This document shows, one piece after another, positions 15,549-56,220 of a DNA stretch of 64,000 bases (its first letter is position 1; the number at the start of each line of letters is the position of its first letter). The notes beneath the pieces were generated by a model. It saw only the letters and a program-made list of their open reading frames with translations, was not told the origin of the DNA and did not search any database. This DNA is from an uncultured Planctomycetota bacterium (lineage in GTDB: Bacteria > Planctomycetota > SKW154 > DAOVDS01). The DNA lies in the NCBI GenBank assembly GCA_964641955.1, contig CAZXNM010000006.1, positions 74,556 through 138,555 on the forward strand. The letters run 5' to 3'. The translations under genes were made by a program, and so were the position numbers.

Positions 15549-15566
15549 CCCTGTCAGGAGAGCTTT

Positions 15567-16007: not shown

Positions 16008-16449
16008 ATGCAGATGCGGGAAGAAACTCGAGGCGGACGAGAAAGATCTCGGCGAAGAGGTTCGCTGCCCGCAGTGCGGCGCCAGGATTCTGCTGCCCTT
16101 CAAGCCTGAAGGCACTCATGGATACGTCGGCCGCGAGAAACTCGCCCGCCCCGCTCTTGTAATGAGCCTGCTGCCGCTCGCGCTCATTCTCTACGCTGCA
16201 ATTGAAACCGCCGTATGCGGCAGGTGGAGCATTCTGAAGACAGCCTTCAATCTTCTCGGGCTTGTCCTGTGGCTCGGGCAGGTCGCGACTGTAATCCTCG
16301 GAGCCGTGGCTCTAAGGCGCATCAAGCGGGCCGACGATGCGGGCAGTATCCTCGAAGGCGAGAAGGAGGCGACGGTCGCGGTAGTGCTTGGTTCGGTGTG
16401 GCTTGCCCTGTTCGGGCGATTCTTGCTTTTCTACTTCCTCTACATCTGA
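15991..16449 (+). CDS. Small zinc-ribbon (CxxC...CxxC) protein with 3 C-terminal TM helices. Overlaps the 3' end of the VanZ-like gene by 17 nt in another frame.
   Basis: ATG at 15991, 'MTYRFECRCGKKLEADEKDLGEEVRCPQCGARI', then hydrophobic segments. The longer tracked ORF (15619..) upstream portion is a Ser/Arg-rich alternate frame of vanZ-like and probably not real. Confidence 0.5.
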   Translation: MTYRFECRCGKKLEADEKDLGEEVRCPQCGARILLPFKPEGTHGYVGREKLARPALVMSLLPLALILYAAIETAVCGRWSILKTAFNLLGLVLWLGQVATVILGAVALRRIKRADDAGSILEGEKEATVAVVLGSVWLALFGRFLLFYFLYI

Positions 16450-18959: not shown

Positions 18960-20612
18960 TTGAGTAACTTCAGGCAAAAAATCGTTCTTGCTGTACTAGC
19001 GACTTTATACCTTGCGCTCTGCGGGTGTAGCATTCTGGGTTACTCCGGGCAAAGACATCAGCGCAATGTCATTTACGTAGATGGCGAACGAGGAAGTGAC
19101 AGTAATACCGGCAAATCCCGCGAGAATGCCGTCAGTACAATCGGAAAAGGCCTGGAGCTTGCCCGGGACGGTGACACAATCCTCATGGCGGACGGCATTT
19201 ACAGCGGCGAGGGCAATAGGAACCTCGACTTTCGCGGCAAGAAGGTGCGCCTGAAATCCGCCGGGGAACCCAGCAACTGCATAATCGATTCTACGAGAGA
19301 AGGCCGTGCGTTCCTCTTTCACAGCGGCGAGACAAGCAGTTCGGTCCTGGATGGATTCACAATCCGCAATGGATACTTCTTCCTGGGAGGTCCCGAGGAA
19401 TGGGGCGGTGAAGCGGATGCCTTCCGCTTCGGCGGCGGGATACTGATTCTCTACTCCAGCCCCACAATCAGGAACTGCATCATTGAAGGCAATGACTATG
19501 CCGGTATCCACTGCATCCGGGGCAACCCGCATATTGTCAGGTGCACCCTGCGGAACAACGAGGGGCAGTACGGCGGTGGAATCCACATGTGCAGGTCCTG
19601 GCCCGTAATAGAGGATTGCACCATAGTGAGCAACTTCGCCGACGACGGCGGGGGTATCGGCTGCACCCACGACTCGAAGCCGCTTATCAGGAACTGCCTT
19701 ATCGCGCACAATGACGTAAGCTATGGAGGCGCGGGCATTTGCTGTCATGACAGCGCGCCGGCAATATCCGACTGCATCATCACCGGCAACAGGGCCAAAT
19801 GGAGCGACGGCACGAGCGGGGGCGGCATAGAATGCTGGTACTCCAAACCCACAATCACCGGCTGTCTTATCACAAACAACATAGCCATAGGATACGGCAA
19901 AGGCGGGGGAATCTCCTGTGTAAAGAATTCCGACGCGATGATAGACCGGTGCACTCTGCGGGGCAATTCGGCGAACATGGGAGATGCGATTATCTGCGAA
20001 CGCAACTCCTCGGCCAACGTGACGAACTCCCTTATTGTCGGCAACGGATCGCGTTACAGCCAGGGGGCAATCGTAGCAGATGAGAAGTCAAGCCTGACCC
20101 TCACCAACTGCGTCGTGGCTCAGAACGGCGGAGCAGTGCAATGCTGGCAGGGGTCCCGAGCCACCGTTGTCAATTGCACTGTGGCAATGAACACTACCGA
20201 CCAGGTTGGAGGAGGCCTGATGCTCTACGAATCGAGCATGCTCGTCTGCAACACGATAATCTGGGGCAACGAGGCGAAAAAAGGGGGCAATCAGATATCG
20301 ATAGGCGGCGACAAGTCGCAGCTTGTGCTCAAGCATTGCTGTTTCTCAAATGGGAAAGATGACGTCACAGGCAAGGAACCACTCGTGACCGAGAAGTGTC
20401 TCAACGCGAACCCCCTCATGCGGATGTACCCCAGCATTACGACCAGGTACGTTCTCAGGAAGGGCTCTCCCTGCATTGACGCGGGCGGGGACTCGCTTCT
20501 GCCTCCGGGCCTCAAGAAGGACCTGGGCAACAACCCAAGGGTTATTGATGGTGACAAAGACGGCAAGGCGAATGTTGATATCGGCGCTCACGAATACGTT
20601 CCGGCCAAGTAA
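18960..20612 (+). CDS. Secreted lipoprotein with right-handed parallel beta-helix repeats (pectate-lyase-fold, choice-of-anchor-type)
   Basis: TTG start after an AAGGAAG RBS. Lipobox 'LALCGCS'. 'DGDTILMADGIYSGEGNRNLDFRGKKVRLKSAG' then many 'GGGI...C..S.P.I..C' beta-helix rungs. C-terminal 'VDIGAHEY'. Confidence 0.7.
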   Translation: MSNFRQKIVLAVLATLYLALCGCSILGYSGQRHQRNVIYVDGERGSDSNTGKSRENAVSTIGKGLELARDGDTILMADGIYSGEGNRNLDFRGKKVRLKSAGEPSNCIIDSTREGRAFLFHSGETSSSVLDGFTIRNGYFFLGGPEEWGGEADAFRFGGGILILYSSPTIRNCIIEGNDYAGIHCIRGNPHIVRCTLRNNEGQYGGGIHMCRSWPVIEDCTIVSNFADDGGGIGCTHDSKPLIRNCLIAHNDVSYGGAGICCHDSAPAISDCIITGNRAKWSDGTSGGGIECWYSKPTITGCLITNNIAIGYGKGGGISCVKNSDAMIDRCTLRGNSANMGDAIICERNSSANVTNSLIVGNGSRYSQGAIVADEKSSLTLTNCVVAQNGGAVQCWQGSRATVVNCTVAMNTTDQVGGGLMLYESSMLVCNTIIWGNEAKKGGNQISIGGDKSQLVLKHCCFSNGKDDVTGKEPLVTEKCLNANPLMRMYPSITTRYVLRKGSPCIDAGGDSLLPPGLKKDLGNNPRVIDGDKDGKANVDIGAHEYVPAK

Positions 20613-20630
20613 AAGAATGGGGTAGGTGCT

Positions 20631-22301
20631 GTGTCAACCTGCGGGAAGCTGATAGTTCTGTCTGCTGCCTGCGTTCTGTTCTGCGGGTGTGTAACTTCCC
20701 GCCCCGTGACGATTTACGTCAACGGCGCCGCGGGTGACAATGGAGGAGACGGTCTGTCAGAAGCCTGCGCTCTAAAGACAATCCAGCGCGCCCTCAACCT
20801 CGCCGGGGATGGCGACACAATCCTCGTGGCGGACGGCATCTACAGCGGCGAGGGCAACAAGGACCTCGACTTTCGCGGCAAGAAGGTACACTTGAAGTCT
20901 GCCGGCGGGCCTGACAAATGCGTCATAGACTGCGAGAATGACGGCCGCGCATTCCTGTTTCACTGCAACGAGACGAAGGCCAGCGTGGTGGAAGGTTTCA
21001 CCCTCGCAAACGGCAATGTAAACAAGGGCCGCCCAACCACGACATTTGATTTTCTCCCTGATGGGGTCATGCGCGGCGGCGCAGTCCTGTGCATATGCTC
21101 CAGCCCCGCTATCAGAGACTGCACATTCAAGAACAATAGGGCGAACCGGGGCGGCGCTATATACTGTTACAAGTCCAGCCCCTCCGTATCCAACTGCCGC
21201 TTCAGGTCGAACAAAGCCAGTGAAGGTGCCGCCGTTTCCTGCGTGCAGGAATCAAGCGCCGTGATAACACAGTGCCTTGTGACTGAGAACGAGGGACGCA
21301 GCACAGCCATGGTGGCTGGAGGCTACGTTATCCACTGCCGCGGCGGCTCGAATGCCGTCATTACAGGCTGCACAATCGCTCGGAATCAAGGTGCAGGCAT
21401 TTGCAGCGCTGACTCCAGCCTGACAATCTCGGACTGCGAGGTATCAGGGTGCAGAGAAGACGAAGATGACCTCTGGGGTGCCGGAAGCACAAGCGGAATC
21501 GCCCTGAGCGGCGGCAGGACTCAACTGACAAGGTGCAAAGTCACGCACAATAGCGGCTGCGGCATTGCCCATCACGACGGAACCGCCAGGCTGACCGACT
21601 GTGTCGTGTCCAACAACGGCGAACATGGCGTTGAGGCGAGCAAATCCGAGTTGATAGTGAAAGACTGCAGGATAGAAGGTAACAGATACATAGGCGTGGA
21701 TTGCGGGAAATCAAATGTTGAGATTGTCAGCAGTATCGTCACCAACAGTTCTGAGTCTATTGGCATTTCTTTTAGCGATTCCAAGGGAAAAGTCGCCAAT
21801 TCCCTCATAAGCGGCAACAGGGAGCTTGGGATTGAGTGTGCCAATAGCAGTCAGATTGACGTTTTGAATTGCACCATAGCCGGCAACTCAGGGCCCCGCG
21901 GGCTCGGTGTCTGCTGCGGAGGCGACTGCCGGGTTACGGTGACCAATACCATCATCTGGGGCAATGCCGACCCCGAAGAGAATGAAGTCCACGCTGACAG
22001 AGGCGGCTCCCTGACTCTCAAGTACTGCCTTCTCAGAGAGTTTACAGACACCGTTTGGGAGACCAAACCCGGCGCTGGGGTGACACTCAGTGCGTGCCTG
22101 CACGCGGAGCCGCAGTTCCTGGACGCGGCCGGGGGCAACTACAGGCTCAAGCCCGGCTCGCCGGCAATCGATGCCGGGCTTAACTCATTCGCACCTCGGG
22201 GTGTAAAGACCGACCTGGATGGCAAGCCGAGGATTGTTGACAGCAACGGCGATAGCAAGGCGGTCGTTGACATAGGTGCCTACGAATACCACAGACGCTG
22301 A
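20631..22301 (+). CDS. Paralogous secreted beta-helix lipoprotein
   Basis: GTG start. Lipobox 'VLFCGCV'. 'DGDTILVADGIYSGEGNKDLDFRGKKVHLKSAG' is nearly identical to the upstream paralog motif. C-terminal 'VDIGAYEY'. Confidence 0.7.
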   Translation: MSTCGKLIVLSAACVLFCGCVTSRPVTIYVNGAAGDNGGDGLSEACALKTIQRALNLAGDGDTILVADGIYSGEGNKDLDFRGKKVHLKSAGGPDKCVIDCENDGRAFLFHCNETKASVVEGFTLANGNVNKGRPTTTFDFLPDGVMRGGAVLCICSSPAIRDCTFKNNRANRGGAIYCYKSSPSVSNCRFRSNKASEGAAVSCVQESSAVITQCLVTENEGRSTAMVAGGYVIHCRGGSNAVITGCTIARNQGAGICSADSSLTISDCEVSGCREDEDDLWGAGSTSGIALSGGRTQLTRCKVTHNSGCGIAHHDGTARLTDCVVSNNGEHGVEASKSELIVKDCRIEGNRYIGVDCGKSNVEIVSSIVTNSSESIGISFSDSKGKVANSLISGNRELGIECANSSQIDVLNCTIAGNSGPRGLGVCCGGDCRVTVTNTIIWGNADPEENEVHADRGGSLTLKYCLLREFTDTVWETKPGAGVTLSACLHAEPQFLDAAGGNYRLKPGSPAIDAGLNSFAPRGVKTDLDGKPRIVDSNGDSKAVVDIGAYEYHRR

Positions 22302-22372: not shown

Positions 22373-23764
22373 TTATTGCCCACGGGGCGGTGCCGGGGGA
22401 GCGGGAGTGAGGCGCGTGAGGGCGAGGCCGAGGCCGAGGAGCGACCAGAAGATGGGGCTCGATGAGAGAGTCGAGAACGAGAACTGCTGCTGCGCGAGGT
22501 AAGACACGATGGCGACGATTATCGCCATTGCCGCAACCTTTTGATAGCCTTCAAGTTGCGACGACGCCCGCCACATGGTAATCAGGGACACGCCGACCGC
22601 AAGCAGGAAAGGCACGAGCGAGGCGAGGCCGCCTTCGTAGGCAATCTGCAGCAACAGGTTTTCCGGCTTGTCGGGCTTCGTGAACATCCTGCCCTCATAG
22701 CCGAACTCCGCCGGTTTAGGCATTTTTACAAAGCACATGGTGTCCGGCCCCCATCCGAACGCGGGCCGCTTCGCGATAAGCGGCAGGGTGGCGCGCCAGA
22801 TGTAGGTTCGCACACGAATAGTCGAGGAGCTTACCGGACCTTCGCCCGTGCCTTCGACAGCCCGAGCAACAAGCGAAGGCCGTCCGTTTGCAACTGCGGC
22901 CCTGTCAAATCCGATAGCACATGCTGCAAACACCACTGCGAGAGCAATTGCGCGCAAGCGCTGCACCGGCGCCCGCTTCAGGACAAGCACGACCGCGCAG
23001 GCAGTTCCCGCCGCGAGCCCGACCCAGGCACCGCGATGGTAGGTGGCGAGAATGCAGGTGAAGATAAGCCCCGCAACCGGCAGCCAGAGCCACGACACGC
23101 GCTGTTTCCCGCTTCTAGGGTAGAGAACGAAAAAAACGGGGAATGGCAGCACGAGCAGGAGGTAGGCGGCGAGGAAGCCGGGATTGCCGCTCGTCGCAAA
23201 GGCACGCCACCAGTCGAGCCTGACATGGTCTCGCGGCAGTGGGTCGAAGCCGAAGAACTGCAGCAGGCCGTAAACAGAGGCGATGCATGCTCCGAGCACG
23301 AGGCAGGACAGGACATTCTTGAGCTTGTGTTCAGTGTCCACGCAGTTAGAAAACAGAAAGAACGCAGCCGCGTACATGAGAAAGGCAAGGAATCCCTCGG
23401 AGCGGAACTGGCGGCCCCAGAAGGCCGTATCGGGCCAGGGAGACAGGGCCGTGGCGATGCTCAGAGATACGATGAAAGCTGCCACATAGAGAAAGACGGG
23501 GCTGAATTTCAGCAGATGGCGCTTTTCGGCAAGCATGCGCAGAAGCCAGAAGGCAGCCACAAAGCAGACAAGATAGAGCGCGATGGTCAGCTTGGGCTTG
23601 TAGTAAAAATCGTCAAAGAGACCCTCGAACTCTGCGCCTTTCGGCGAATACGCAAGCGGGACAAACGCGACGAAGAAGCAGAGGATAATCGTCAGCGCGC
23701 GTTCGGGGAATCGTATTAAGTCTGTAATACACGACTTTGCAGGCTGATTGTCGGTTTCTTCCAT
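22373..23764 (-). CDS. O-antigen ligase / Wzy_C-like polytopic membrane protein. Candidate pilin O-oligosaccharyltransferase (PglL/PilO-like) by context.
   Basis: ~12 hydrophobic TM segments with a large loop containing 'YHRGAWVGLAAG'. Position directly downstream of three pilin-like genes in the same orientation. Confidence 0.55.
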   Translation of the reverse strand: MEETDNQPAKSCITDLIRFPERALTIILCFFVAFVPLAYSPKGAEFEGLFDDFYYKPKLTIALYLVCFVAAFWLLRMLAEKRHLLKFSPVFLYVAAFIVSLSIATALSPWPDTAFWGRQFRSEGFLAFLMYAAAFFLFSNCVDTEHKLKNVLSCLVLGACIASVYGLLQFFGFDPLPRDHVRLDWWRAFATSGNPGFLAAYLLLVLPFPVFFVLYPRSGKQRVSWLWLPVAGLIFTCILATYHRGAWVGLAAGTACAVVLVLKRAPVQRLRAIALAVVFAACAIGFDRAAVANGRPSLVARAVEGTGEGPVSSSTIRVRTYIWRATLPLIAKRPAFGWGPDTMCFVKMPKPAEFGYEGRMFTKPDKPENLLLQIAYEGGLASLVPFLLAVGVSLITMWRASSQLEGYQKVAAMAIIVAIVSYLAQQQFSFSTLSSSPIFWSLLGLGLALTRLTPAPPAPPRGQ

Positions 23765-23833
23765 AACGGCAGGAGATGATAGAAGAAGGGATACGGGCTT
23801 TCAAGCTCGTATCCCCTTTATTTCGCACTCGTG

Positions 23834-24307
23834 CTACTTGGTTGACCTGTTGCTGGCGTTGCTGACGAAGATGCACTCTGGATTGTACTGAACGGTATCT
23901 GAGGCTGGGACATCGACATCTTCCGTCTGTGATGCCCCGATACTCCAGACTGCATACGTCGGTATATCGCCCGGGTTTACAGGCGCGAGATACTCGTACT
24001 GGTACGGAGGAGGATTCTTCGGGTCAGTGGTAGGCTGGTATGGGTCGCCCGGCCTTTCATCGAAGACGCGGGGACTCATCGCCAGCAGGGCTCCAACCCA
24101 GTCGCCGGAATCATCCGGGAAAGTGTTGTATTTAATGTAATACTGCCCGAGGGCCGCCTGTATCAGGCGTATGTCAGCCCTGACCTTCTTATTCTTCGTT
24201 TCCACCGTCACGCCGATAACCGAGGCGAGCACGATTGTTACCAGAATGCCGATGATGGCCAGCACCAGCAGCATTTCAACCAGTGTGAAGCCGCTGTTTC
24301 TCTCCAC
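23834..24307 (-). CDS. Prepilin-type N-terminal cleavage/methylation domain protein (GspG-like pseudopilin/pilin)
   Basis: GTG start with a GGAGG RBS. 'SGFTLVEMLLVLAIIGILVTIVLA' is a class III signal (G^FTLxE). C-terminal 'PPYQYEY'. Confidence 0.75.
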   Translation of the reverse strand: MERNSGFTLVEMLLVLAIIGILVTIVLASVIGVTVETKNKKVRADIRLIQAALGQYYIKYNTFPDDSGDWVGALLAMSPRVFDERPGDPYQPTTDPKNPPPYQYEYLAPVNPGDIPTYAVWSIGASQTEDVDVPASDTVQYNPECIFVSNASNRSTK

Positions 24308-24353
24308 TACTTCCTCCTTCTTCAGGAAGGTTCTCTGATTTCCCCGACCCCGC

Positions 24354-24842
24354 TTACGGCGAAACAGTCTTGCAGTTGCTCACGTACAGCTCAGCACCGC
24401 TCGCATCGGCAAGGTCATCAAACGGAACGCTGGGCGCCACCGCAGGCCCCTTGTCAGAGGAAATAATATAGAACTTCCCGCTGGCGCTGAGCGCGTAGTT
24501 ATACGTGTCCTTATCGCCTACACCAGTGAGCTCATAGGGGTCCGCCGGGAACGAGTCAATGAACCGGCTGTAAATTTCCGGTGCCGGACTCCCGGCCGGG
24601 GAGATAATGTAGCTGGCCGAAGTGCCCCAGGCGCCTGGCGAGCCGCCTTCTGGAGGATAGACCCCGAAGGCAATATAATAAACTTCAATAGCGCTCTTGA
24701 GAGTTCTCAGGTCGGCCTTGGCCGCCCTCATCTTGGCACCCTCGCCTACACCGCCAACCGACGGCAGTAGAATCGCCACCAGGAAGCCTATAATGGCGAC
24801 CACCAGCAGCATCTCAATCAGCGTAAAACCTTTCTCGCCCAT
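24354..24842 (-). CDS. Prepilin-type protein (GspG-like major pseudopilin/pilin)
   Basis: 'MGEKGFTLIEMLLVVAIIGFLVAILLPSV', then 'AKADLRTLKSAIEVYYIAFGVYPP' typical of GspG. Preceded (upstream, 24870-25114) by a ~245-bp AT-rich leader. Confidence 0.75.
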   Translation of the reverse strand: MGEKGFTLIEMLLVVAIIGFLVAILLPSVGGVGEGAKMRAAKADLRTLKSAIEVYYIAFGVYPPEGGSPGAWGTSASYIISPAGSPAPEIYSRFIDSFPADPYELTGVGDKDTYNYALSASGKFYIISSDKGPAVAPSVPFDDLADASGAELYVSNCKTVSP

Positions 24843-25114
24843 GTTCAAGCTCCTTTCTACCTGTACCAAACGCTCGAAAAGCCAATAACCAAATTAGTCC
24901 CCGAGCACCTCCCTTCATGATGTCGAAGGCATACGATGAGATTATACTGTCGCTACGTCCAATAGCATCTGTAACTATATCGTCATCTTGCGGAAAGTCA
25001 AGTCTTTATGCAAATTTGTGCAGAAGAAATCTTAAAAATTCCCTTTTATGCACTCAGGTTTCACGCACAAGACTCCGTGATGCAGGAAGAGGAGGTAAAA
25101 GGTCACTATCCAGA

Positions 25115-25492
25115 TTAATAGTCTTCACAGCCGGGTGTCTGCGAACGGACCTCGCCCGTGATGGGGTTGTAGACGTACTTCATGCCGAATGGGTCGCGTG
25201 GAGAGCCTGAGCTGTCCGTGCCGGGCACGATGAGAGTCATATTCCCGCCCAGACCCTTTTTCATGGCCTGTTGAAGCGTGGCCGGGTATGTAAGATTGTG
25301 GGCGTAAAAAAAATCGACCGTGCTGCGTATCTTGCCGAGTTCGGTCTTGAGCGCGAGTTCCTTCGCTTCCCTGCCGAAGCCGTAGAATCCGACAATGCAG
25401 AAAATGCCCAGGAATATTACGACGAGGATAACAAGCGTGAGTTCGTGAAGATTCTGGGAAACCAATGCGAACCCTCTCTCCGAGCTACCCAA
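25115..25492 (-). CDS. GspG-like pseudopilin with atypical N-terminus
   Basis: C-terminal 'DPFGMKYVYNPITGEV' matches the GspG 'DPWGxPYxY' motif. The N-terminus is 'RGFALVSQNLHELTLVILVVIFLGIFCIVGF' (G-F at cleavage position but polar SQNLHE before the hydrophobic core). Overlaps the gspF/pilC stop by 8 nt. Confidence 0.5.
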   Translation of the reverse strand: MGSSERGFALVSQNLHELTLVILVVIFLGIFCIVGFYGFGREAKELALKTELGKIRSTVDFFYAHNLTYPATLQQAMKKGLGGNMTLIVPGTDSSGSPRDPFGMKYVYNPITGEVRSQTPGCEDY

Positions 25493-26702
25493 TATTTTCG
25501 ACCACCGATATCATATTGAATATCGGCAGGAACAGGGAGAGGGCTATAATCGCAACCACGAAAGCGAGAAAAACAAGCAGAATCGGCTCAATTATCTTGG
25601 GCAGGGCCTTGCTCAGGTGGTCAATCTGCTGCTCGTATGAATCGCCCACGAAGCCGAGCATGTTGTCGAGCTGGCCGGTCTCTTCCCCGACGGCAACCAT
25701 CTGGGTCAGCATGGGCTCGAATTCGGGATGATCGCGCAAGGCCGACCCTATAGTGCGCCCGCCCTGGACTTCGTGCGACACGTCCGCTATCGCCCGCGTA
25801 TAGACCTCGTTGGTCATGGTCTCCCTTATTATCTGGAGCGCGGACACAACCGCCACTCCGCTCCGAGCCATAATCTCGAGGGAACGGGCGAAACGGACGG
25901 CGGCGACCTTCCTGATAAACTGGCTTATAATCGGCAGGCGCAGCTTGAAGCGGTCGATTGCGAGGCGTCCCGGCGGCGTGCGCTTGAGCAGGATGTAAAG
26001 GGCGACAAGACCTACCACAGCGGCAATGAGGATGTACCAGTAGTCTGTAACGAGAGTGCTCAAGGCAAACATGAACCTGGTGATGCCGGGAAGCTCTACC
26101 TTGGCGCGCTCGTATACCTTCTTGAACTCAGGAAGAACTCCCGTAAGCAGGAAGATAGATACGCCGAAGGCTATGCACAGGACGATTGCCGGGTACATGA
26201 GACTTGATATAACGGCGGAGCGCAGGGAGTCTTCCCACTCGATAAAATTCGCCATGCGGTCGAGCACTTCTTCGAGATTACCCGTCTCTTCCCCCACCTT
26301 GACGTTGGAGACATACAGCTTCGAGAACACCCGGGGGTGCCTGGCGAGCGCCTGAGTGAATGAAGAGCCTTCGTTCAGGTCGAGACGAACCTCCCGCAGC
26401 ACCTTGCACAGGGCGGGGTCGTCGGTCTGCTGGATGAGAACATCAAGGCCCGAAAGCAGGGGCAGGCCCGCCCGGACCATCGTGGCGAGCTGCCGCGTGA
26501 ACATGGTGAGCTGCCGGCGGCGCACGCCCCTCAGCCGGGAGACGTAGGATCCCCTCGCTCCCGTGGAATGGGGCTTGATTGACGTGGCATAGTAGCCGCT
26601 CTGCGCCAGACGCTGCGCCACGGACTTCTCGTCCGCCGCTTCGAGCATGCCCTCCACCTGCTCGCCGAGCGCATCTCTCGCCGTGTAAGTGTACTTGGGC
26701 AC
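25485..26702 (-). CDS. gspF: Type II secretion / type IV pilus inner-membrane platform protein (GspF/PilC family)
   Basis: GTG start 1 nt after the gspE stop. Two GspF repeats with 3 TM helices; 'KPHSTGARGSYVSRLRGVRRRQLTMFTRQLATMVRAGLPLL' is typical T2SSF. Could equally be called pilC. Confidence 0.85.
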   Translation of the reverse strand: MPKYTYTARDALGEQVEGMLEAADEKSVAQRLAQSGYYATSIKPHSTGARGSYVSRLRGVRRRQLTMFTRQLATMVRAGLPLLSGLDVLIQQTDDPALCKVLREVRLDLNEGSSFTQALARHPRVFSKLYVSNVKVGEETGNLEEVLDRMANFIEWEDSLRSAVISSLMYPAIVLCIAFGVSIFLLTGVLPEFKKVYERAKVELPGITRFMFALSTLVTDYWYILIAAVVGLVALYILLKRTPPGRLAIDRFKLRLPIISQFIRKVAAVRFARSLEIMARSGVAVVSALQIIRETMTNEVYTRAIADVSHEVQGGRTIGSALRDHPEFEPMLTQMVAVGEETGQLDNMLGFVGDSYEQQIDHLSKALPKIIEPILLVFLAFVVAIIALSLFLPIFNMISVVENIG

Positions 26703-26703
26703 T

Positions 26704-28392
26704 CTACACCGCCTGCTCGCCCGTGACCCTGAGCACTTCCGCCACGGTTGTCCTGCCCGCGAGAACCTTTCTCAAGCCGGCATCCCTCAGAGTCGTCATC
26801 CCCGATTCCACAGCCTTGTCGCGGACTGTGCTCGCGGGTGATTTCGCTACAATCAACGCGCGGACCTCTTCGTCGGGCACGAGTATCTCGAAAAGCCCTG
26901 TTCTGCCTTTGAAGCCCGTCTGGTTGCACTGCTTGCATCCGCGAGTGCTGTGGAAAGTTACATCCTCGTCCGGCCGCAGGCCCAGCGACTCTTTCTCGAA
27001 CGGGCTGGGCTCGTACGCCTCCTTGCAGTTCGGGCACAATACCCGCACGAGCCGCTGGCTGACCGCGCAAAGCAAGGTGGAGGCGACGAGATACGGCTCC
27101 ACTCCCATGTCAATGAGCCTCGTCGCGGTTGATGGGGCATCGTTGGTGTGCAGAGAAGAGAATACGAGATGGCCCGTGAGAGCAGCCTGGATGGCTATCT
27201 GGGCCGACTTGAAGTCACGCACCTCGCCGACCATTATAATATCGGGGTCGAGGCGGAACAGTGCCCGCAGACCCGTGTCGAACGTCAGGCCCGCCTTCGG
27301 GTTTATCTGGCTCTGGTTAATCATCTCGATGTCGTACTCGACCGGGTCTTCTATCGTTACAATGTTCTTCTCAGAGCTGTTTATCGTGTCGAGCACCGCG
27401 TACAGGGTCGTCGTTTTGCCGCAGCCGGTAGGCCCGGTCGTGAGAACCATGCCGTAAGGCTGATTCACAACCCCCTCGAAAAGCTGGAGCATCTCGGGCT
27501 CGAACCCGAGTTCCGCGAGGCCGAGCCGTATGCCGCTGCGGTCAAGCAGGCGCATGACTATCTTCTCGCCGTATGTAACGGGGAAAGTCGCCACGCGCAG
27601 GTCTATCTCCCTGCCTTCCTTCCTGACCTCGATATGGCCGTCCTGGGGCAGCCTTCTCTCCGCGATGTTCATCCCGGAGAGTATTTTTACGCGCGTAATC
27701 ACCGCCGACTGCAGGTGGTGGGGCACCTGAATCGTGTCGTGGAGCACGCCGTCTATGCGATAGCGGACCTTGAGCCCCTTCTTTCGCGGCTCTATATGTA
27801 TGTCGCTCGCCCGGTCGCGAATAGCCTGCGTGATTATCAGGTTCACCAGCCTGACTACCGGCGCGTCCTCGGTCATATCCTCGATGCGCGCGGTCTCGAC
27901 CTCCGCCCGCTCCGCGGTGCCGCCCCGCGAGGCATCGAGATTCTTAATCACCTCCCGCACCGAATCCGTAATCCTGTAATACTGCTCGATGGCGCGCTTT
28001 ATGGCGCTTTCCGTCGCCACAACGACGAGGATATCGACATGGTTCTTCTGCGCAATCTCGTCTATCGCGTAGATATTGAATGGGTCCGCGACGGCAATCG
28101 CGAGCGTTTCGCCAAGCATGTAGAGCGGCATGGCGCGATACCTGCGGGCCATCTCCTCTGTGACAAGCTCGAGGGTCTTGCGCTCCAGGATGAAGCGGTC
28201 AAGGTCAACGTATGGTATCTTGAGCTGGCGGGCCATGCACTGGCATATCTGGCTTTCGTCGGCCAGTCCCATCGAGGTGATAACCTCGTTCAGGGGTTTG
28301 CCGGTCTTGCGCTGTTCGAGAAGCACCCGCTCCGACTCGACCTTGCTCAGGATGCCTTCTCGAAGGAGAAAATCGAGTATCTCCTCAGGCAC
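26704..28392 (-). CDS. gspE: Type II secretion / type IV pilus assembly ATPase (GspE/PilB family) with N-terminal T2SSE_N domain and C-terminal tetracysteine zinc site
   Basis: Walker A 'LTTGPTGCGKTTTLYA', Walker B/Asp box 'IIMVGEVRD', His box, N-terminal 'ILDFLLREGILSKVESERVL', Cys motif 'CPNCK...CKQCNQTG'. GTG start. Confidence 0.9.
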   Translation of the reverse strand: MPEEILDFLLREGILSKVESERVLLEQRKTGKPLNEVITSMGLADESQICQCMARQLKIPYVDLDRFILERKTLELVTEEMARRYRAMPLYMLGETLAIAVADPFNIYAIDEIAQKNHVDILVVVATESAIKRAIEQYYRITDSVREVIKNLDASRGGTAERAEVETARIEDMTEDAPVVRLVNLIITQAIRDRASDIHIEPRKKGLKVRYRIDGVLHDTIQVPHHLQSAVITRVKILSGMNIAERRLPQDGHIEVRKEGREIDLRVATFPVTYGEKIVMRLLDRSGIRLGLAELGFEPEMLQLFEGVVNQPYGMVLTTGPTGCGKTTTLYAVLDTINSSEKNIVTIEDPVEYDIEMINQSQINPKAGLTFDTGLRALFRLDPDIIMVGEVRDFKSAQIAIQAALTGHLVFSSLHTNDAPSTATRLIDMGVEPYLVASTLLCAVSQRLVRVLCPNCKEAYEPSPFEKESLGLRPDEDVTFHSTRGCKQCNQTGFKGRTGLFEILVPDEEVRALIVAKSPASTVRDKAVESGMTTLRDAGLRKVLAGRTTVAEVLRVTGEQAV

Positions 28393-28431
28393 TGCTCCTC
28401 CAGCTTCTGCAGCCGACAGCGGCGACCGACG

Positions 28432-29040
28432 CTACGCGCGCCCGACCCTGCCGGCAAATCTGTTCACTTCTTCCAGAAGGTCGTTCAGCTCGAAAGGCTT
28501 CGTCATGTAAAGGTCCGCGCCTGCCTTGGTACCTGCCTCCCTCGATTCCCTGTCCACCTTTCCCGTGAGCATGATAATGGGTATCTTCCTGTAGCGCTCG
28601 TCGAACTTGAGCAGCCGGCAGACGTGGTATCCCGTGAGGCCCGGGACCATTATATCCAGAATGATGAGCGCGGGCCTGACCTTGCGCGCCATCTCAAGGG
28701 CCTGGAGCCCGTCGTATATGGCCAGAACGTTATAGCCCCGCCCTTCGAGCTTGAGTTTCAGGCTGTCAGCCGTATCGAGGTCGTCCTCGACGATGAGAAT
28801 CACATTTTCGGGCGAGACTGCGGAATCCTCGGCTTCGCCGGTATCAGGGGCGAGCGGTGGACTCTCTTCGGATTGCGCGCCGGAATCGCCTTCGGTTTGC
28901 TCTTTGCTCTCCGGCTCTTTGCCTGCGGCGTCGGGTTTGTCTTCAATACTCACGCGGGTAGCACCGAGTCCTGTTAAAAAGCCTGTTCCCCGGGCAGTAC
29001 CCGCTCCCTCGCGGAGCGCGCGCCCGCCGTTTTCTATCAA
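28432..29040 (-). CDS. Single-domain (CheY-like) response regulator with ~70-aa acidic/low-complexity N-terminal extension. The exact start is uncertain.
   Basis: REC motifs 'VILIVEDDLDTADSL', 'ILDIMVPGLTGY', 'IIMLTGKVD...K'. The ORF-track start is TTG at 29040, overlapping the kinase stop by 4 nt. No output domain. Confidence 0.7.
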   Translation of the reverse strand: MIENGGRALREGAGTARGTGFLTGLGATRVSIEDKPDAAGKEPESKEQTEGDSGAQSEESPPLAPDTGEAEDSAVSPENVILIVEDDLDTADSLKLKLEGRGYNVLAIYDGLQALEMARKVRPALIILDIMVPGLTGYHVCRLLKFDERYRKIPIIMLTGKVDRESREAGTKAGADLYMTKPFELNDLLEEVNRFAGRVGRA

Positions 29041-30275
29041 CTGCGAGCCCGCAACGGCAGAGTGAAGAAGAAGGTGCTGCCCTTGCCCGGCTCGCTCTCG
29101 GCCCAGATGCGCCCGCCGTGCAGCTCTACAATCCTCTTTGAGATGGCAAGGCCGAGGCCCTGCCCGGACTCTTCCTGGGCCTCGTCGGAGCGGTACAGCC
29201 GCTCGAATATGAGTTCGACCTCTTCCGAGGAAATTCCCTGCCCCCCGTCCGCAACGGAAAATTCGACCTCGTTCTCGCCCGCCTTGGCCGCTATCACAAG
29301 CTCGCTGGATTGCCCGCTGAACTTGATGCCGTTTCGCAGCAGGTTCACCAGCACCTGCTCTATCTTGGCCTTGTCAGCCCGTATTTCAGGCAGGTCCTCC
29401 GGAACATCAACCTTGATTTCAAGGTTTTTCTCCTCCGTCCAGACCTCGACCGAACGCAGGGCGTTCTGCACCAGCTCGGAAGCCTTGACTTCTTCGAGCG
29501 TCAGTTCGCGCTCGCTTGTGGAACGCAATTCCTCGAGATACAGGAGCATCTTGTCCGCCTGCTCCTTCATGCGCTGCAGGCGCTCCTTGATTTTATCAGG
29601 CACTTCCCCGAGGTCGCCGTCGAGCATGTTCGTGAGGTAATTCTTGATGGCAGTCGCGGGCGTGTTCAGCTCGTGGCAAAGTTCCGCCAGCCACATCCCG
29701 TGGCTTCTCGACTGCTCCGTGAGCTGCTGGTTCCTGTTCATCAGCGTGCCGCAGAGTCTCGCGTTCTGCAGCGCCGCCGCGCAGTAGCGCGCGAAAGTCA
29801 CCGCAATTCTCAGGTCCTGCTGCCTGAATTCCGGCATGTCCCCGTCCATCATGCGGTTGAGATTGAGCACACCGACCACGGTATCGTTTATCTTCATGGG
29901 AACGCAGACGGAACTTCTTATATCGGTGCGCCCCTCGAGCGCGGAAAACTGCGGGTTGTCCTCGAGCTTGCCGTGCAGTATCACAGGAATCTTCTGGTCC
30001 GCCACCCAGCCGGCGATGCGCTCGCCCATCTTCAGGGTCGTCTTCTCCTCGAACTCCTTCTCTATGCGCACGGCCCGGTTGATTGAGAGCTTCTTCGACT
30101 TGCGGTCAACGAGCATAACCGACCCGCCGTCCGCATCGACAAGCTGCATCGCGAGCGTGAGTATCTGCTTGACCACGTCTTCGATGTTCAGACTCAGGTA
30201 AAGCTTCCTGGTAAGCTCCAGAAGCAGTGGCATTTTCTCGGCTGCAACGAAGTGTTTCTTGCCACGCTCGGCCAT
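29037..30275 (-). CDS. Sensor histidine kinase, cytoplasmic, GAF domain + HisKA + HATPase_c
   Basis: ATG at 30275 with a GGAGAGAG RBS. GAF-like 'ILTLAMQLVDADGGSVMLVD'. H-box 'LAELCHELNTPATAIKNY'. N/G boxes 'LVNLLRNGIKFS', 'VADGGQGIS', 'GQGLGLAISKRIVELHGG'. No TM segment. Confidence 0.8.
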   Translation of the reverse strand: MAERGKKHFVAAEKMPLLLELTRKLYLSLNIEDVVKQILTLAMQLVDADGGSVMLVDRKSKKLSINRAVRIEKEFEEKTTLKMGERIAGWVADQKIPVILHGKLEDNPQFSALEGRTDIRSSVCVPMKINDTVVGVLNLNRMMDGDMPEFRQQDLRIAVTFARYCAAALQNARLCGTLMNRNQQLTEQSRSHGMWLAELCHELNTPATAIKNYLTNMLDGDLGEVPDKIKERLQRMKEQADKMLLYLEELRSTSERELTLEEVKASELVQNALRSVEVWTEEKNLEIKVDVPEDLPEIRADKAKIEQVLVNLLRNGIKFSGQSSELVIAAKAGENEVEFSVADGGQGISSEEVELIFERLYRSDEAQEESGQGLGLAISKRIVELHGGRIWAESEPGKGSTFFFTLPLRARS

Positions 30276-30389
30276 TTTAACTCTCTCCTGTTCTCTGTCC
30301 CTGTTCCCGCAGGCCTCGCTTGCGCAGTCCACCTCTGCGCCGCGCGCACCCCTTCTATAAGGTAACTCTGCGCCAAGGCGCGAGTTTCG

Positions 30390-30587
30390 CTATCGCTTGG
30401 ACCAGGTCTCGATAAACTTCTCGAACGACCTGTCGTAGGTCTTCTCGACATCGGGCGGGAAGCAGCACCCCGGAAGCTCTCTCCTCTTGAGATGGCTTCT
30501 GATGCACTCGCAGCATTTTCCCCTCTTGTCGCACGAGTACGTACAGGCGCAGTCCTTCATGTTCTCGCGCTGGTTCGGGCAGTCCAA
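30390..30587 (-). CDS. Small cysteine-rich protein (65 aa, 9 Cys)
   Basis: 'CACTYSCDKRGKCCECIRSHLKRRELPGCCFPPD'. Immediately upstream of, and co-oriented with, the GAF histidine kinase. Confidence 0.45.
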   Translation of the reverse strand: MDCPNQRENMKDCACTYSCDKRGKCCECIRSHLKRRELPGCCFPPDVEKTYDRSFEKFIETWSKR

Positions 30588-30605
30588 GGCATCCCTCCGC
30601 CGGTC

Positions 30606-31025
30606 CTACGTCCTGATGCTCACGTGTCTCGGAAGTTCCCTGAGATATTCGTCGTCGAACACCTTCTTGAAGTCGTATACGTCGTCGAAATCCTCGATAT
30701 TGTCTTCCTCGGTCTTGCCCATGAGGCCGTAGTTCACCAGGCCGAAGACCATCTCGCCGAAGTTGTCCGTCCTGCTCACGCCCCAGTTCTCGAACACAAT
30801 GCGCGCCATGAACCCGAACTTCTTCTTCGCCAGCTCGCGGATTCCGTCCAGCAGCTCCGCGGCGGTCACGTGCCTGGGCTCCGGTAGCCTCGAAATCGTG
30901 AAGTGAAGGGCATCGAAAATAAACCTGTACGCCTCAAGGTCGTAACGCCCCTCGATTTTGGCCACGGCGCGCAGGCGCTCGTCAAACTCACGCTCGCTCT
31001 CGAGAGCATGGTCTTTGTCTGGCAT
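30606..31025 (-). CDS. Hypothetical acidic cytoplasmic protein (139 aa)
   Basis: ORF with ATG at 31025. No recognisable motif. First gene of the minus-strand HK/RR/pilus gene string. Confidence 0.45.
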   Translation of the reverse strand: MPDKDHALESEREFDERLRAVAKIEGRYDLEAYRFIFDALHFTISRLPEPRHVTAAELLDGIRELAKKKFGFMARIVFENWGVSRTDNFGEMVFGLVNYGLMGKTEEDNIEDFDDVYDFKKVFDDEYLRELPRHVSIRT

Positions 31026-31156
31026 TTCTCGCTGAGCCTCCGTAACTCAGTCCGCCTGGCATGCAGGCTTACATACAATCCCGTAGATATGATACTAACA
31101 CGAACACGCCGCCTCGTCAATATAAAATATGCAACGCGGCCCCACCGGGCTTGAGC

Positions 31157-31186
31157 TTGGCTTTAGCAGCCCGCATGAGGTATAAT
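31157..31186 (+). promoter_or_regulatory. Candidate sigma70-type promoter for the paralog array: -35 TTGGCT (31157-31162), 18-nt spacer, -10 TATAAT (31181-31186)
   Basis: Read directly from the sequence in the 160-bp divergent intergenic region. Followed by a GGGAG RBS and the ATG at 31219. Confidence 0.35.
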
Positions 31187-31218
31187 TGGTTATGCATAAG
31201 TCTGGGCGGGAGAAAACG

Positions 31219-33528
31219 ATGAAACGGCTGATTCTGGCTTGCGTGACTGTCATGCTTGCGGCGCCCGCGCTCTACGCGCAGGAGTCGCTTGATGAGATTG
31301 TCGCGAAGCTCAATAAGGCCAACTACGCAACCGCGATGAAGATGTTCCCCGAACTCGAGAAACGCAAGCTCCTCGGCGTCTCGGAAGAACCGGTCGAAGG
31401 GAAGGAGCGGAAAGTCCTGAAGTTCTTTTTCCGCTTGCCTCTGTCGGACAAGGCAATGGCGCTTTATTACTGCTACAATCTCAAGACGGGCGTACCGGAT
31501 GTTCGCGAGCTTGCCGCACGCAGCCTTCGACCCTACCCCGACCTCATCGCCGAGACCATTGACGAGCTCGTCCTTGAGAAGAGCACGGACAATTTCGACA
31601 AGGCTGCCGCGGCGCTGCTCTCGGTCGCTGATATCGAGATGCACGAAGCGATCCCGGTGTCGTACGCGCTGTACTGGCAACACGGCGAGAAAACAGCGTT
31701 CTGCAGGCTCACCGGGAAGCAGCATGCGATGATGGTTACGGCGAAGGCGGCCCTGCACCCGGGGAGCGACGAAGCGAGCGAGGAGCTGCGCCGGAGCGTC
31801 GTCCTGTACAAGTCTCTCGGGATTGGGAAAGAGTTCTCCGAGACCCTGAAAGCAAGGATTTCAGCCGCAGCGGGTGCTGAGTCAGGTGACGATTTCCGCC
31901 CTGCCCTCGCGTTCGTCGGCGACGACTTCGCATCACTTGCGGCCACGGTGCTCGATGCCGAATCTCCGAAATTACCGAGGAAGTCCGCGGTGCACTACCT
32001 TGTCTCCTCCTGCAAAGCCGAAGCTGCCAAGAGCCTTCGCGGCGCGATTGCGAAGATGGAGGAAGGCGAGATTCTGACATACGCATTATCGGCGGTGAGC
32101 GTCGTCAAAAAGGAAAAGGACCTTGGGAGATACCGTGCAATGGCACTCGACCTGCTCAAGGATGGAAAGGTCGCCAAGGAGCCGAAGCTCTGGATGCTGC
32201 ACTATCTCGGAGAGCACGGAATCTGGGAAGATGTCCCACAGATAGTCGAGGTCATGGATTCTCTCAGAGACGTTCAATTGCGTAAAAACGCGTTCCTGGC
32301 TCTGGAACGAATATCACGCCAGCTCGACAACAAGCAGGATGCCGAACTGGCGCTGTCAGTTTACCGGAAGCTGGGCGCGGCGGCAGAAGACTGGGTGGTC
32401 AAATTCCTTGTCGAACGCCCGACTCGCATTTCCCACAAGGTTATCTCGGACGCTGCAGCAAGAGAGAAGAACGGGGGCTACAAGGCTTTCTACGAAACCC
32501 TCGCCCAGAAAGTTCTTCAGGCATGCGTGCTTGCAGAAGAGTACGGCGGAGTAGCAGTCATCGCGCACCTAAGATGGCTACACTTGCACCAGGACAGGCC
32601 CAGCGGCATGTGGGATTCCGACGGCTTCGACAAGAACTGTGATACACGGAGTGCCCCGAAGTGTACGGGCGCGGGGGCGGCTGACTGCGACCTTGTAGTC
32701 ACTTCCCTGGCAACCCTGCGATTCCTGGAGCGCAACTGGACGCACACCACGGGACTGTTCAAGAAGACTATTCGCCTCGGCCTGTTGTGGCTGATAAGAC
32801 ACCAGAAAGACGACGGGCAGGTGGAAATCAGCGGCGGGGCAGACCCGATAGAAGCGCATGCAATTGCGACGAAGAATCTCTGTCAGGCCTACGCCATGAC
32901 GCAGCAGTTACGGGATAAGGCCGAGAAGGCAGCCAAATTCCTGCGTTCGAAGCAGTGTGAAGACGGGGGCTGGAAGAAGAGCGATGAGTCCGAATCGTCC
33001 GATGTCGTAACCACGGCGTGGGCCGTGATGGCGCTGAGACAGGCCAAAGACGCCGGTCTCGAAGTGCCGGACGAGACTTTTGGGAAAGCGCTGAAATACC
33101 TCGACTCGCTCTCGCTCGCCGCGCCGAAGGCGAGAGCCGGTTTCGTGAAGGTCCCATACCTGAAGGCTGTCGCAGCCGCTGCAACGGCCAGCTTCCTGTG
33201 CGGGCGTGGCAAGGACGACGAGAGGCTCGCCAAGCTGATTGACATTCTCGACAAGAACCATCCCAGGTGGAACGGTCCCGGTGGACCTGTCTACTGGTAT
33301 TTCGGCACCTGCGCCATGTCTCTCTATGGCGGGGAAAAGCTGGATAAGTGGGCTAATGCTCTCAAACAGACAATCCGGGGAGAAAGAAGGGTAGGCACGT
33401 GCGCCAACGGCTCGTGGAACCCCGTCGGGCTGGATGGGAGAAGGCTGGGGCGAGTCGGCATGACCGCGCTGGTCAAGCTCGCCATCCTGAGACTGTGGAA
33501 AGACGGCAAGGCCGAAGAACCCAAATAG
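31219..33528 (+). CDS. Secreted two-domain protein, paralog A: signal peptide, ~450-aa alpha-helical N-region, C-terminal alpha/alpha-toroid (prenyltransferase / squalene-oxidase-repeat-like) domain
   Basis: Signal peptide 'MKRLILACVTVMLAAPALYAQE'. Conserved N-motif 'LDEIVAKLNKANYATAMKMFPELEKRKLLGV'. C-domain with 'WLHLHQDRPSGMWDSDGFDKNCD', QW-type motif 'LRSKQCEDGGWKK', 'VVTTAWAVMALRQAKDAGLEVP', 'CANGSWNPVGLDGRRLGRVGMTAL'. Confidence 0.65.
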   Translation: MKRLILACVTVMLAAPALYAQESLDEIVAKLNKANYATAMKMFPELEKRKLLGVSEEPVEGKERKVLKFFFRLPLSDKAMALYYCYNLKTGVPDVRELAARSLRPYPDLIAETIDELVLEKSTDNFDKAAAALLSVADIEMHEAIPVSYALYWQHGEKTAFCRLTGKQHAMMVTAKAALHPGSDEASEELRRSVVLYKSLGIGKEFSETLKARISAAAGAESGDDFRPALAFVGDDFASLAATVLDAESPKLPRKSAVHYLVSSCKAEAAKSLRGAIAKMEEGEILTYALSAVSVVKKEKDLGRYRAMALDLLKDGKVAKEPKLWMLHYLGEHGIWEDVPQIVEVMDSLRDVQLRKNAFLALERISRQLDNKQDAELALSVYRKLGAAAEDWVVKFLVERPTRISHKVISDAAAREKNGGYKAFYETLAQKVLQACVLAEEYGGVAVIAHLRWLHLHQDRPSGMWDSDGFDKNCDTRSAPKCTGAGAADCDLVVTSLATLRFLERNWTHTTGLFKKTIRLGLLWLIRHQKDDGQVEISGGADPIEAHAIATKNLCQAYAMTQQLRDKAEKAAKFLRSKQCEDGGWKKSDESESSDVVTTAWAVMALRQAKDAGLEVPDETFGKALKYLDSLSLAAPKARAGFVKVPYLKAVAAAATASFLCGRGKDDERLAKLIDILDKNHPRWNGPGGPVYWYFGTCAMSLYGGEKLDKWANALKQTIRGERRVGTCANGSWNPVGLDGRRLGRVGMTALVKLAILRLWKDGKAEEPK

Positions 33529-33556
33529 CTGATAAAGCTTGCGAAGGAGCCTGATA

Positions 33557-51533: not shown

Positions 51534-51574
51534 GATATAAGTGAATAATTCTCGTTCAGACTGATAAGACAGGG

Positions 51575-51607
51575 GCATCCGCGGGTTTTCGCCCGCGGAT
51601 GCTTTCC
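51575..51607 (+). terminator. Rho-independent terminator-like hairpin after the DUF4159-like gene
   Basis: Perfect inverted repeat GCATCCGCGGG-TTTTC-GCCCGCGGATGC (51575-51602) followed by TTTCC. Confidence 0.55.
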
Positions 51608-51657
51608 AACAGGTTCGTCTTGGGGCTCATACAATCCAGTTTTAACCGGGAGTAGAG

Positions 51658-53067
<1,410 letters not shown>

Positions 53068-53079
53068 CCGGGGGCGCAA

Positions 53080-53982: not shown

Positions 53983-53984
53983 AA

Positions 53985-56216: not shown

Positions 56217-56220
56217 ATGC

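Follow-up and report, generated by a model that had tools for sequence, protein, structure and literature searches.

What might be controlled by a two-component regulator that lacks an output domain and is encoded directly ahead of the motor of a type IV filament? This question is raised by a 64,000-nucleotide stretch of DNA (hereafter, the window) from an uncultured Planctomycetota bacterium (contig CAZXNM010000006.1 of assembly GCA_964641955.1), in which nine co-oriented minus-strand open reading frames (ORFs) are present at positions 22373-31025, with genes for a soluble histidine kinase (HK), a stand-alone receiver (REC) protein, a PilB-type ATPase, a PilC/GspF platform and pilin-like proteins among them. 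The comparative evidence presented here makes it highly probable that the kinase-receiver pair is functionally linked to the pilus genes in some way. As to the nature of that link, we favor on balance a model in which direct contact of the receiver with PilB and/or PilC gates filament assembly.

The contig is at least 225 kb long, and the window takes up 64 kb of it. Its minus-strand genes at 22373-31025 were analyzed with Pfam and NCBIfam domain searches, the Pfam scan being extended to ~48 ORFs across the whole 64 kb, and transmembrane (TM) segments were assessed with a 19-residue Kyte-Doolittle mean. Homologues were sought by running a PilB query on 185,579 species genomes plus the Joint Genome Institute (JGI) metagenomes, and a REC domain query on 5.8 billion proteins. 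The latter returned a receiver (P0001), on a 225-kb contig, that is 100% identical to that of the window, and a Logan copy of the window DNA (L161) carries public gene calls. Genomic context was obtained for five relatives of the same clade (L001, L081/L162/L163, L164, L165/L166 and L167), with 20-kb contexts for the relatives. The gene string proposed by an earlier, sequence-only reading of this DNA (a kinase, a REC-only regulator, GspE/PilB, GspF/PilC, three GspG-like pseudopilins and a Wzy_C protein) was recovered, with ORFs at its coordinates and concordant Pfam and NCBIfam domains; the same range also holds two genes that had been left unnamed, of the Minf_1886 and DUF6485 families.

The sensor kinase gene (29037-30275, minus strand) encodes a GAF-HisKA-HATPase_c protein of 412 residues (Pfam GAF_2 1e-17, HisKA 7e-8 and HATPase_c 2e-30), the H-box of which, HELNTP, can be read directly in the sequence. 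Its longest ORF reaches 30332, and the start at ATG 30275, preceded by GGAGAG, agrees with the public call and with the orthologues. The protein had been described as cytoplasmic, and indeed no TM segment was detected, the maximum 19-residue Kyte-Doolittle mean being 1.42 and no hydrophobic segment rising above the threshold. The adjoining receiver gene (28432-28953, minus strand) probably starts at GTG 28953 and encodes a REC domain with no output domain (173 residues); the longest ORF, which the public call adopts, extends to 29040 (202 residues), whereas the close homologues P0002-P0004 start at the equivalent of GTG 28953. Response_reg (6.6e-24) is the sole Pfam domain of this protein, which bears out the earlier statement that the regulator has no DNA-binding domain and, as the co-encoded regulator has no output domain, the view that classical transcriptional activation is unlikely.

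All the residues of a working receiver are intact and conserved in homologues: the EDD pair, the acceptor D (IILDIMVPG), T (MLTGK) and K (TKPF). The domain is preceded by an acidic, low-complexity, Pro/Ser-rich N-terminal tail of ~50 residues (28804-28953, minus strand; 15 D/E and only 3 K among 52 residues), presumably disordered in the receivers of this clade. An extension of ~20-85 residues, mostly acidic and Pro/Ala/Ser-rich and poorly conserved in sequence, is present in 20 of 20 close orthologues (149-208 residues) and absent from second-tier homologues of 122-129 residues. The search recovered a tight group of orthologues with 63-100% identity (149-208 residues) and a second tier of many stand-alone receivers (122-129 residues) with 50-57% identity. 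The 120 top-scoring matches are all stand-alone proteins of 122-208 residues, and 118 of them contain the signature GYxVCRxLKFDxxY. On this sequence evidence the receiver is assigned to a subfamily of stand-alone REC proteins with the signature GYxVCRLLKFD, comprising ~1,850 members at E<=1e-10.

The gene that follows encodes the extension ATPase (26704-28392, minus strand; 562 residues, with a GTG start after GGAGGAG), which combines an MshEN (GSPII) N-domain (5.5e-21) with T2SSE (2.3e-134). A single MshEN/GSPII domain, which matches the N-domains of MshE and PilB, spans the first 140 residues. The best structural relatives in the PDB are the PilB proteins of Geobacter (508 bits) and Myxococcus (489 bits), aligned over their full length, against 432 bits for Vibrio GspE, aligned from residue 101. 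Among NCBIfam models, PilB (TIGR02538) likewise aligns over the full length (610 bits, under its cutoff of 676), and GspE aligns from residue 80 only (600.5 bits, cutoff 630.25). Because the PilB proteins of Geobacter and Myxococcus match along the whole length and outscore GspE, the ATPase is classified by sequence as PilB-like rather than GspE-like. The platform gene (25485-26702, minus strand) encodes 405 residues with three TM regions and two T2SSF repeats (2e-58); it aligns end to end with the NCBIfam models for GspF (380.9 bits, cutoff 424) and PilC (347 bits), in both cases under the equivalog cutoff.

The MshEN domain raises the possibility that the motor responds to cyclic di-GMP (c-di-GMP). 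The binding motif consists of a tandem 24-residue unit, RLGxx(L/V/I)(L/V/I)xxG(L/V/I)(L/V/I)xxxxLxxxLxxQ, with a 5-residue spacer (PMC5013675). The window domain keeps the fold, the two-unit layout and the 5-residue spacer of c-di-GMP-controlled MshE/PilB, but EIL and PLN stand in place of its two RLG triads, and it fails a relaxed form of the motif too. As both triads are missing, the motif model NF053729 stays under its cutoff of 38 with a score of 28.6, and the related ATPases of two distant loci (L170 and L177) are without the first ~55 residues, a c-di-GMP input to the window PilB appears doubtful. Most of the PilB homologues sampled also have no c-di-GMP motif, so the lack in the window protein is not distinctive. 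We considered and rejected the idea that REC-linked PilB proteins as a class have lost c-di-GMP binding: the relaxed tandem motif was found in 25 of 142 proteins with no REC linkage and in 0 of 16 REC-linked proteins, which are not independent of each other, and the correlation is not meaningful.

Translational coupling had been proposed for three junctions, of which the 1-nt interval between the PilB stop and the PilC start is the sole secure one; the 4-nt HK/REC and 8-nt gspF/pilin overlaps exist only in the longest ORFs. The kinase and REC genes are separated by 70-120 nt in L001 and L081, and the start of the first pilin-like gene, pil1, at TTG 25465 (public call and L081 orthologue) leaves a 19-nt gap after the PilC stop.

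The more informative evidence is the conservation of the gene order itself. The PilB query returned only two close relatives, L001 (79% identity) and L081 (78%), and both keep the order Minf_1886-HK-REC-PilB-PilC. The arrangement Minf_1886-(DUF6485)-GAF-HK-REC-PilB-PilC is retained in all five clade relatives with context, at 72-78% identity to the window for REC and 76-79% for PilB. The block persists despite differing flanks; in L165, PilC is followed by a REC gene on the opposite strand and by ribosomal and signal recognition particle genes, with no pilins. Among distant members of the receiver subfamily (50-57% identity), five of six lie directly between a histidine kinase gene and a T2SSE or T2SSF gene. 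P0061 (Omnitrophota) and P0047 show the order GAF(-PAS)-HK, REC and MshEN/T2SSE, and in P0040, P0120 and P0117 a hybrid kinase is followed by REC, T2SSF and pilins, then by PilM/N in P0040 and P0120; the P0117 locus ends with no PilM/N in view. P0024 belongs to a REC cluster with an HK-GGDEF protein, and its contig breaks off after another 1.7 kb. At 48-49% identity to the window PilB, the REC-linked ATPases of L170 and L177 rank with its closest relatives outside the clade. Receiver and motor were also found as single polypeptides: a 714-residue MshEN-T2SSE-REC ORF between two hybrid kinases (L056, 679-2823, plus strand) and a 907-residue REC-sigma54 AAA+-MshEN-T2SSE ORF in which no helix-turn-helix (HTH) was detected (L157, 687-3410, plus strand).

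The mechanism that we propose would begin with the soluble GAF-domain kinase sensing an intracellular cue, upon which it would autophosphorylate and hand the phosphoryl group to the co-encoded receiver. Because it has no output domain, the phosphorylated receiver would act by contact, most likely with the PilB hexamer and/or PilC, gating assembly post-translationally. Phosphotransfer within the pair, binding to PilB/PilC and the direction of the effect are what we infer. The suggestion, already made from the sequence alone, that the motor is under protein-protein control gains comparative support from the synteny of the block, the contexts of the REC subfamily, the PilB-REC fusions and the published REC-only proteins that bind PilB. 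Among the latter, the single-domain response regulator EmvR of X. oryzae, reported in 2025, binds PilB and represses its ATPase (PMC11973254), and the REC-only protein DrdR of X. campestris, reported in 2026, binds and stimulates both PilB and PilT (PMC13507683). The PATAN-REC regulators PixE and PixG interact with the Synechocystis pilus motor. All of these are receivers without output domains that act on the motor by contact, altering the ATPase activity or the localization of PilB, and we propose the same for the window receiver. In contrast to EmvR and DrdR, which are described as orphan regulators, the window receiver lies with its kinase and pilB-pilC in one conserved block, and it differs from EmvR, DrdR and the PATAN-REC proteins in forming a distinct subfamily (GYxVCRLLKFD) with an acidic N-terminal tail in its clade. 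A pilB-linked REC-only two-component pair is not listed in a 2024 review of PilB cofactors (PMC11656802), nor was one found in the further literature searched.

Several observations count against the proposed gating by contact. The context sample is small, consisting of six clade members (the window included) and six distant REC members picked for their long contigs. The PilB-REC fusions are single metagenomic ORFs or contigs and could be assembly artefacts. A REC gene lies directly 5' of PilB in a minority of cases, about 7 of ~140 PilB-centered loci with upstream sequence, and most of the REC genes in those ~7 loci belong to other subfamilies. Given this rarity and the involvement of other subfamilies, the REC-PilB association appears to have arisen, or to have been retained, in certain lineages only. 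REC precedes PilC, not PilB, in three of the five distant cases, which leaves the partner ambiguous; synteny, as we read it, indicates functional linkage and does not itself identify the target. Finally, a REC-only protein could be a phosphate sink or a relay.

This last point defines the main competing explanation, in which the kinase-receiver pair would still serve the pilus genes, but with the receiver as a phosphorelay intermediate or phosphate sink of the Spo0F or PilH kind, passing its phosphoryl group to a regulator elsewhere (a transcription factor or a c-di-GMP enzyme) and not touching PilB/PilC at all. Additional receivers do occur near such loci, with three more REC genes after the ATPase in L170, REC-PilZ and REC-REC proteins in L177, and three REC genes with an HK-GGDEF in L168. 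The GAF-sigma54 activator encoded directly after the pilins in L081 would suit the same scheme, as would the conserved palindrome at the pil2 promoter, a candidate site for a DNA-binding factor. Against this, the conserved block contains neither an Hpt protein nor a second regulator, the PilB-REC fusions favor direct contact, and the published REC-only proteins act directly on PilB; on this evidence we consider a relay or sink unlikely. Direct contact with the motor therefore remains the reading that we prefer, and the next question is what kind of machine the motor would drive.

Part of the answer lies in the three pilin-like genes that follow the platform gene in the window. They had been described as GspG-like pseudopilins, which holds for the fold of all three; the class III signal is missing from pil1. 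The pil1 gene (25115-25465, minus strand) encodes a bitopic protein of 116 residues with a GspG-fold, one TM helix, the N-terminus MVSQNLHE and a conserved PGCExY C-terminus. It has no N_methyl match, no Gly at -1, no prepilin cleavage motif and no NCBIfam match, and T2SSG scores 19 bits, under the cutoff. Its N-terminus follows the pattern M(V/I)Sx(R/K)L(H/F)E (the L081 orthologue is P0128), and a profile search of 1.8 billion representatives returned only two clusters below 1e-25, its own and the L081 type. Weak relatives number ~220 (110-150 residues, borderline T2SSG); the dozen inspected share DPFGxxYxYDxxTGxVxSxTxGYExW, and some keep a G-x4-E signal. An AlphaFold2 model built from seven sequences had a mean confidence (pLDDT) of 57, too poor for a fold search. 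The protein is probably a degenerate GspG-fold membrane protein that remains unprocessed.

The other two proteins have the features of prepilins. The candidate major pilin, pil2 (24354-24842, minus strand, the longest ORF reaching 24869; 162 residues, N_methyl 5.5e-7), has the leader MGEKG followed by FTLIEMLLVVAIIG, and the second prepilin, pil3 (23834-24307, minus strand; 157 residues, N_methyl 9.3e-8), has the leader MERNSG followed by FTLVEMLLVLAIIG and a GspG-like globular domain. T2SSG is sub-threshold for pil2 and above its cutoff for pil3 (4.6e-7, 30 bits), and the GspG equivalog scores 55 and 52 bits, respectively, against a cutoff of 88.85. In PDB searches the alpha-1 helix of pil2 matches Geobacter PilA and Neisseria PilE, with PulG aligned over residues 6-102, and pil3 matches PulG (5wda) over residues 7-130; the L081 orthologues are 55% (pil2) and 57% (pil3) identical. 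Both proteins thus combine short leaders (5-6 residues) and an alpha-1 like that of Geobacter and Neisseria pilins with globular parts like those of PulG/GspG. Only two prepilin motifs of the form G/FTL[IV]E (slash, cleavage site) are present in all six frames of the window, those of pil2 and pil3.

Taken as a whole, the locus is best described, from its sequence, as a divergent type IVa pilus (T4aP)-like type IV filament core with GspG-like subunits; the curated equivalog cutoffs for PilB, GspE, GspF and GspG are all narrowly or clearly missed. As noted from the sequence alone, neither a secretin nor a prepilin peptidase is in view: the Pfam scan of ~48 window ORFs found no Secretin, Peptidase_A24, PilM/N/O or PilT, and only one T2SSE-family ORF. 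T4aP genes are usually scattered over several loci, and for this reason we regard the locus as most likely a sub-cluster of a type IVa-pilus-like machine with missing partners to be expected. The absence of pilins from the L165 block, where they must lie elsewhere, indicates that the components of the system are dispersed. We propose that genes for the peptidase, for the secretin and its alignment complex, and for a retraction ATPase, if there is one, lie beyond the 64 kb. The locus shares with the PilS-PilR T4aP loci of Pseudomonas, Geobacter and Myxococcus an MshEN PilB, a PilC, short-leader class III prepilins, a two-component pair within the locus and a major pilin with its own promoter. 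It departs from them in that PilS is polytopic, whereas the window kinase is soluble with a GAF sensor, and PilR is a REC-sigma54 AAA+-HTH protein, whereas the window regulator is REC-only. It further differs in having a pilin promoter that looks like a sigma-70 rather than a sigma-54 type, no adjacent pilT or pilD, and pilins with GspG-like globular domains. The locus is to be seen as a variant of a recently recognized form of pilus control, not as a new machine.

Two other views of the machine deserve consideration. The ATPase, the platform and the three pilin-like proteins might constitute a self-contained, secretin-less minimal filament machine that builds a periplasmic or short pseudopilus. 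Secretin, peptidase, PilMNOP and PilT were not detected in the 64 kb or in the relatives' 20-kb contexts, where Secretin, PilM_2, PilN and PilO specifically gave no match, and the block moves as a unit between differing genomic flanks. However, the class III signals of pil2 and pil3 need a prepilin peptidase, so that at least that gene must be elsewhere; the L165 pilins are elsewhere as well, T4aP genes are normally dispersed, and the contig, at least 225 kb long, is in view over 64 kb only. A self-sufficient machine is hence quite improbable. The same low probability attaches to the proposal that the genes form the core (GspE/F/G) of a type II secretion system (T2SS), rather than of a pilus, exporting neighboring beta-helix proteins. 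In its favor, the best NCBIfam match of the platform is GspF and the globular parts of the pilins are closest to GspG/PulG, and two secreted-looking beta-helix proteins are encoded just downstream, with a homologue near a PilB-PilC-pilin cluster in L110/L111. Yet the ATPase matches PilB over its full length, N-terminus included, and GspE only from residue 80-101, no GspC/D/L/M or GspH-K were detected in the window, and none of the Gsp equivalog cutoffs is reached. Least probable, and disfavored here, is that the two-component pair is a mere neighbor regulating something unrelated: such genes are abundant, chance adjacency occurs and the kinase-REC and REC-PilB junctions do not overlap once starts are corrected, but synteny in five of five related genomes despite the change of flanks, and in five of six distant members, would require repeated chance adjacency to T2SSE/T2SSF genes, which, these genes being rare, is very unlikely.

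Expression of the filament core, read as a pilus sub-cluster, appears to be divided. A sigma-70-like candidate promoter (TTGACG-17-TAGTAT with an extended TG; 31092-31120, minus strand; consensus scan only) precedes the Minf_1886-family gene and is a possible start of a long operon that probably runs from this gene through pil1. The start of pil2 at ATG 24842 places a gap of 272 nt between pil1 and pil2, with 43% GC against ~58% for the window; the AT-rich character reported earlier for this gap is confirmed, and its length, given as ~245 bp, increases with the corrected start. Within it, pil2 and pil3 have a predicted separate, strong promoter of sigma-70 type (24974-25001, minus strand; TTGACT-16-TATAGT, 10 of 12 matches in the scan), the hexamers and spacing of which are conserved in L081 (TTGACA-16-TATACT). 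Just 5' of the -35 lies a near-palindrome, TGCACAAATTTGCA (25009-25022, minus strand), which reads GCAAATTTGC in L081 and is a candidate transcription-factor site. The pil2 5' leader (24843-24973, minus strand; ~125 nt) contains the conserved blocks ATTGGACGTAGCGAC (24949-24963) and GAAGGGAGGTGCT (24904-24916). These upstream elements (24843-25030, minus strand; 13490-13675 in L081) are conserved though the proteins are only ~55-78% identical. A riboswitch or leader RNA was considered for the pil2 leader and rejected, with no Rfam match at gathering or at E<=10 and folding z-scores of -0.37 and +0.47 against shuffled sequences. A GAF-sigma54 activator without a REC domain is encoded directly 3' of the pilins in L081, the nearest metagenomic relative (14797-16296, plus strand; 15300-16799 in L162). 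A sigma-54 pilin promoter, prompted by this activator, was also rejected, the conserved -35/-10 elements being of sigma-70 type, no dedicated sigma-54 scan having been made. Between pil3 and the Wzy_C gene, an inverted repeat (23788-23815), followed on the minus strand by TTCTTCT, forms a hairpin that probably terminates in part, or attenuates, transcription beyond the pilin genes.

At the upstream end, the conserved block opens with the Minf_1886-family gene (30606-31025, minus strand), which encodes 139 residues matching TIGR04138 (Plancto_Ver_chp; E 2.1e-39; 134 bits, cutoff 60) and has orthologues 5' of the kinase in L001, L081/L162, L164, L165 and L167. TIGR04138 is a Planctomycete/Verrucomicrobia family, and one REC orthologue is labeled Planctomycetota. 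A PDB sequence search returned no usable relative of the protein. Between this gene and the kinase lies the DUF6485 gene (30390-30587, minus strand; PF20095), encoding a Cys-rich protein of 65 residues; it is called in L161, the window's own DNA, and in L162, L165 and L167, and none is called in L164. This pair of genes (30390-31025, minus strand) adjoins the kinase even where both outer flanks differ.

At the opposite end, the Wzy_C gene (22373-23764, minus strand) encodes an O-antigen-ligase-like polytopic membrane protein of 463 residues with ~11 hydrophobic segments (PF04932, 2.4e-16). IctB and RfaL are its best curated matches in NCBIfam, far under their cutoffs; it has no PglL_A, Wzy_C_2 or other Pfam domain and no usable PDB relative, and phmmer found no homologue in any other fetched locus. 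Its inclusion in the gene string does not hold up across relatives, as it is absent from that position in L081/L162, where the GAF-sigma54 activator stands instead, and no Wzy_C follows PilC in L165. Since relatives do not keep the gene beside their pilins, we do not count it in the module; to judge by synteny it is a neighbor in the window genome only, outside the conserved module. Its position next to the pilins is similar to that of the pilin O-oligosaccharyltransferases TfpO/PilO/PglL beside pilA. The likeness lies in a gene directly 3' of the pilins and on the same strand; the differences are that the linkage is not kept in relatives and that PglL_A and Wzy_C_2 are not found. A role as a conserved pilin glycosylase was rejected, as synteny in L081/L162 and L165 does not support it.

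Other features of the window were recorded in passing. Two tandem paralogous beta-helix proteins of 550 and 556 residues (18960-22301, plus strand; DUF1565/Pel9A-like, NosD, DUF5123) are encoded convergently with Wzy_C and may act on polysaccharides as secreted or surface proteins. In L110/L111, a homologue is encoded at a distance of 7-9 kb from a PilB-PilC-pilin cluster. Divergent from the module are three tandem paralogues of 780, 792 and 837 residues (31186-38304, plus strand; mutual E 1e-145 to 1e-163), two of which give only faint squalene-hopene-cyclase-like (alpha/alpha toroid) matches. A 1037-residue protein with HD-CE and HATPase_c_3 domains (44793-47906, minus strand) is encoded in the only low-GC stretch (47-51% against ~58%), and this low GC suggests that the gene was horizontally acquired; it is possibly defense-related. 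At 50046-58452 (plus strand), a Bat-like operon comes after a DUF4159 gene and comprises an FHA-fused MoxR AAA+ ATPase, DUF58, BatA-VWA and GATase1-like/MG2. Such operons are typical of PVC-type (Planctomycetota-Verrucomicrobiota-Chlamydiota) genomes, and in L177 MoxR and DUF58 directly follow an HK-REC-T2SSE-glycosyltransferase string.

The post-translational control of pilus motors by output-less receivers has been shown only recently and in few model bacteria. Here, the kinase is co-inherited with the receiver, the ATPase and the platform, and the receiver subfamily recurs beside PilB/PilC in distant uncultured lineages. A broader proposal, which we advance tentatively, is that GYxVCRLLKFD receivers are widespread dedicated adaptors of type IV filament motors in Planctomycetota-like, Omnitrophota and other uncultured bacteria. 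Each would stand between its own kinase and PilB/PilC, turning a cytoplasmic signal into assembly or arrest and replacing the c-di-GMP input to a degenerate MshEN; in its boldest form, the proposal would make the block a complete secretin-less minimal machine. Such a family would be one so far undescribed. If the control by contact inferred for the window holds, the sequence signature would allow regulators of this kind to be predicted in metagenomes. It would also provide a compact four-gene system (HK, REC, PilB and PilC) in which to study phosphorylation gating of the PilB hexamer. To our knowledge, the regulation of pili has hardly been studied in PVC-type bacteria or in Omnitrophota, and such control, if real, would offer a handle on surface behavior in both groups.

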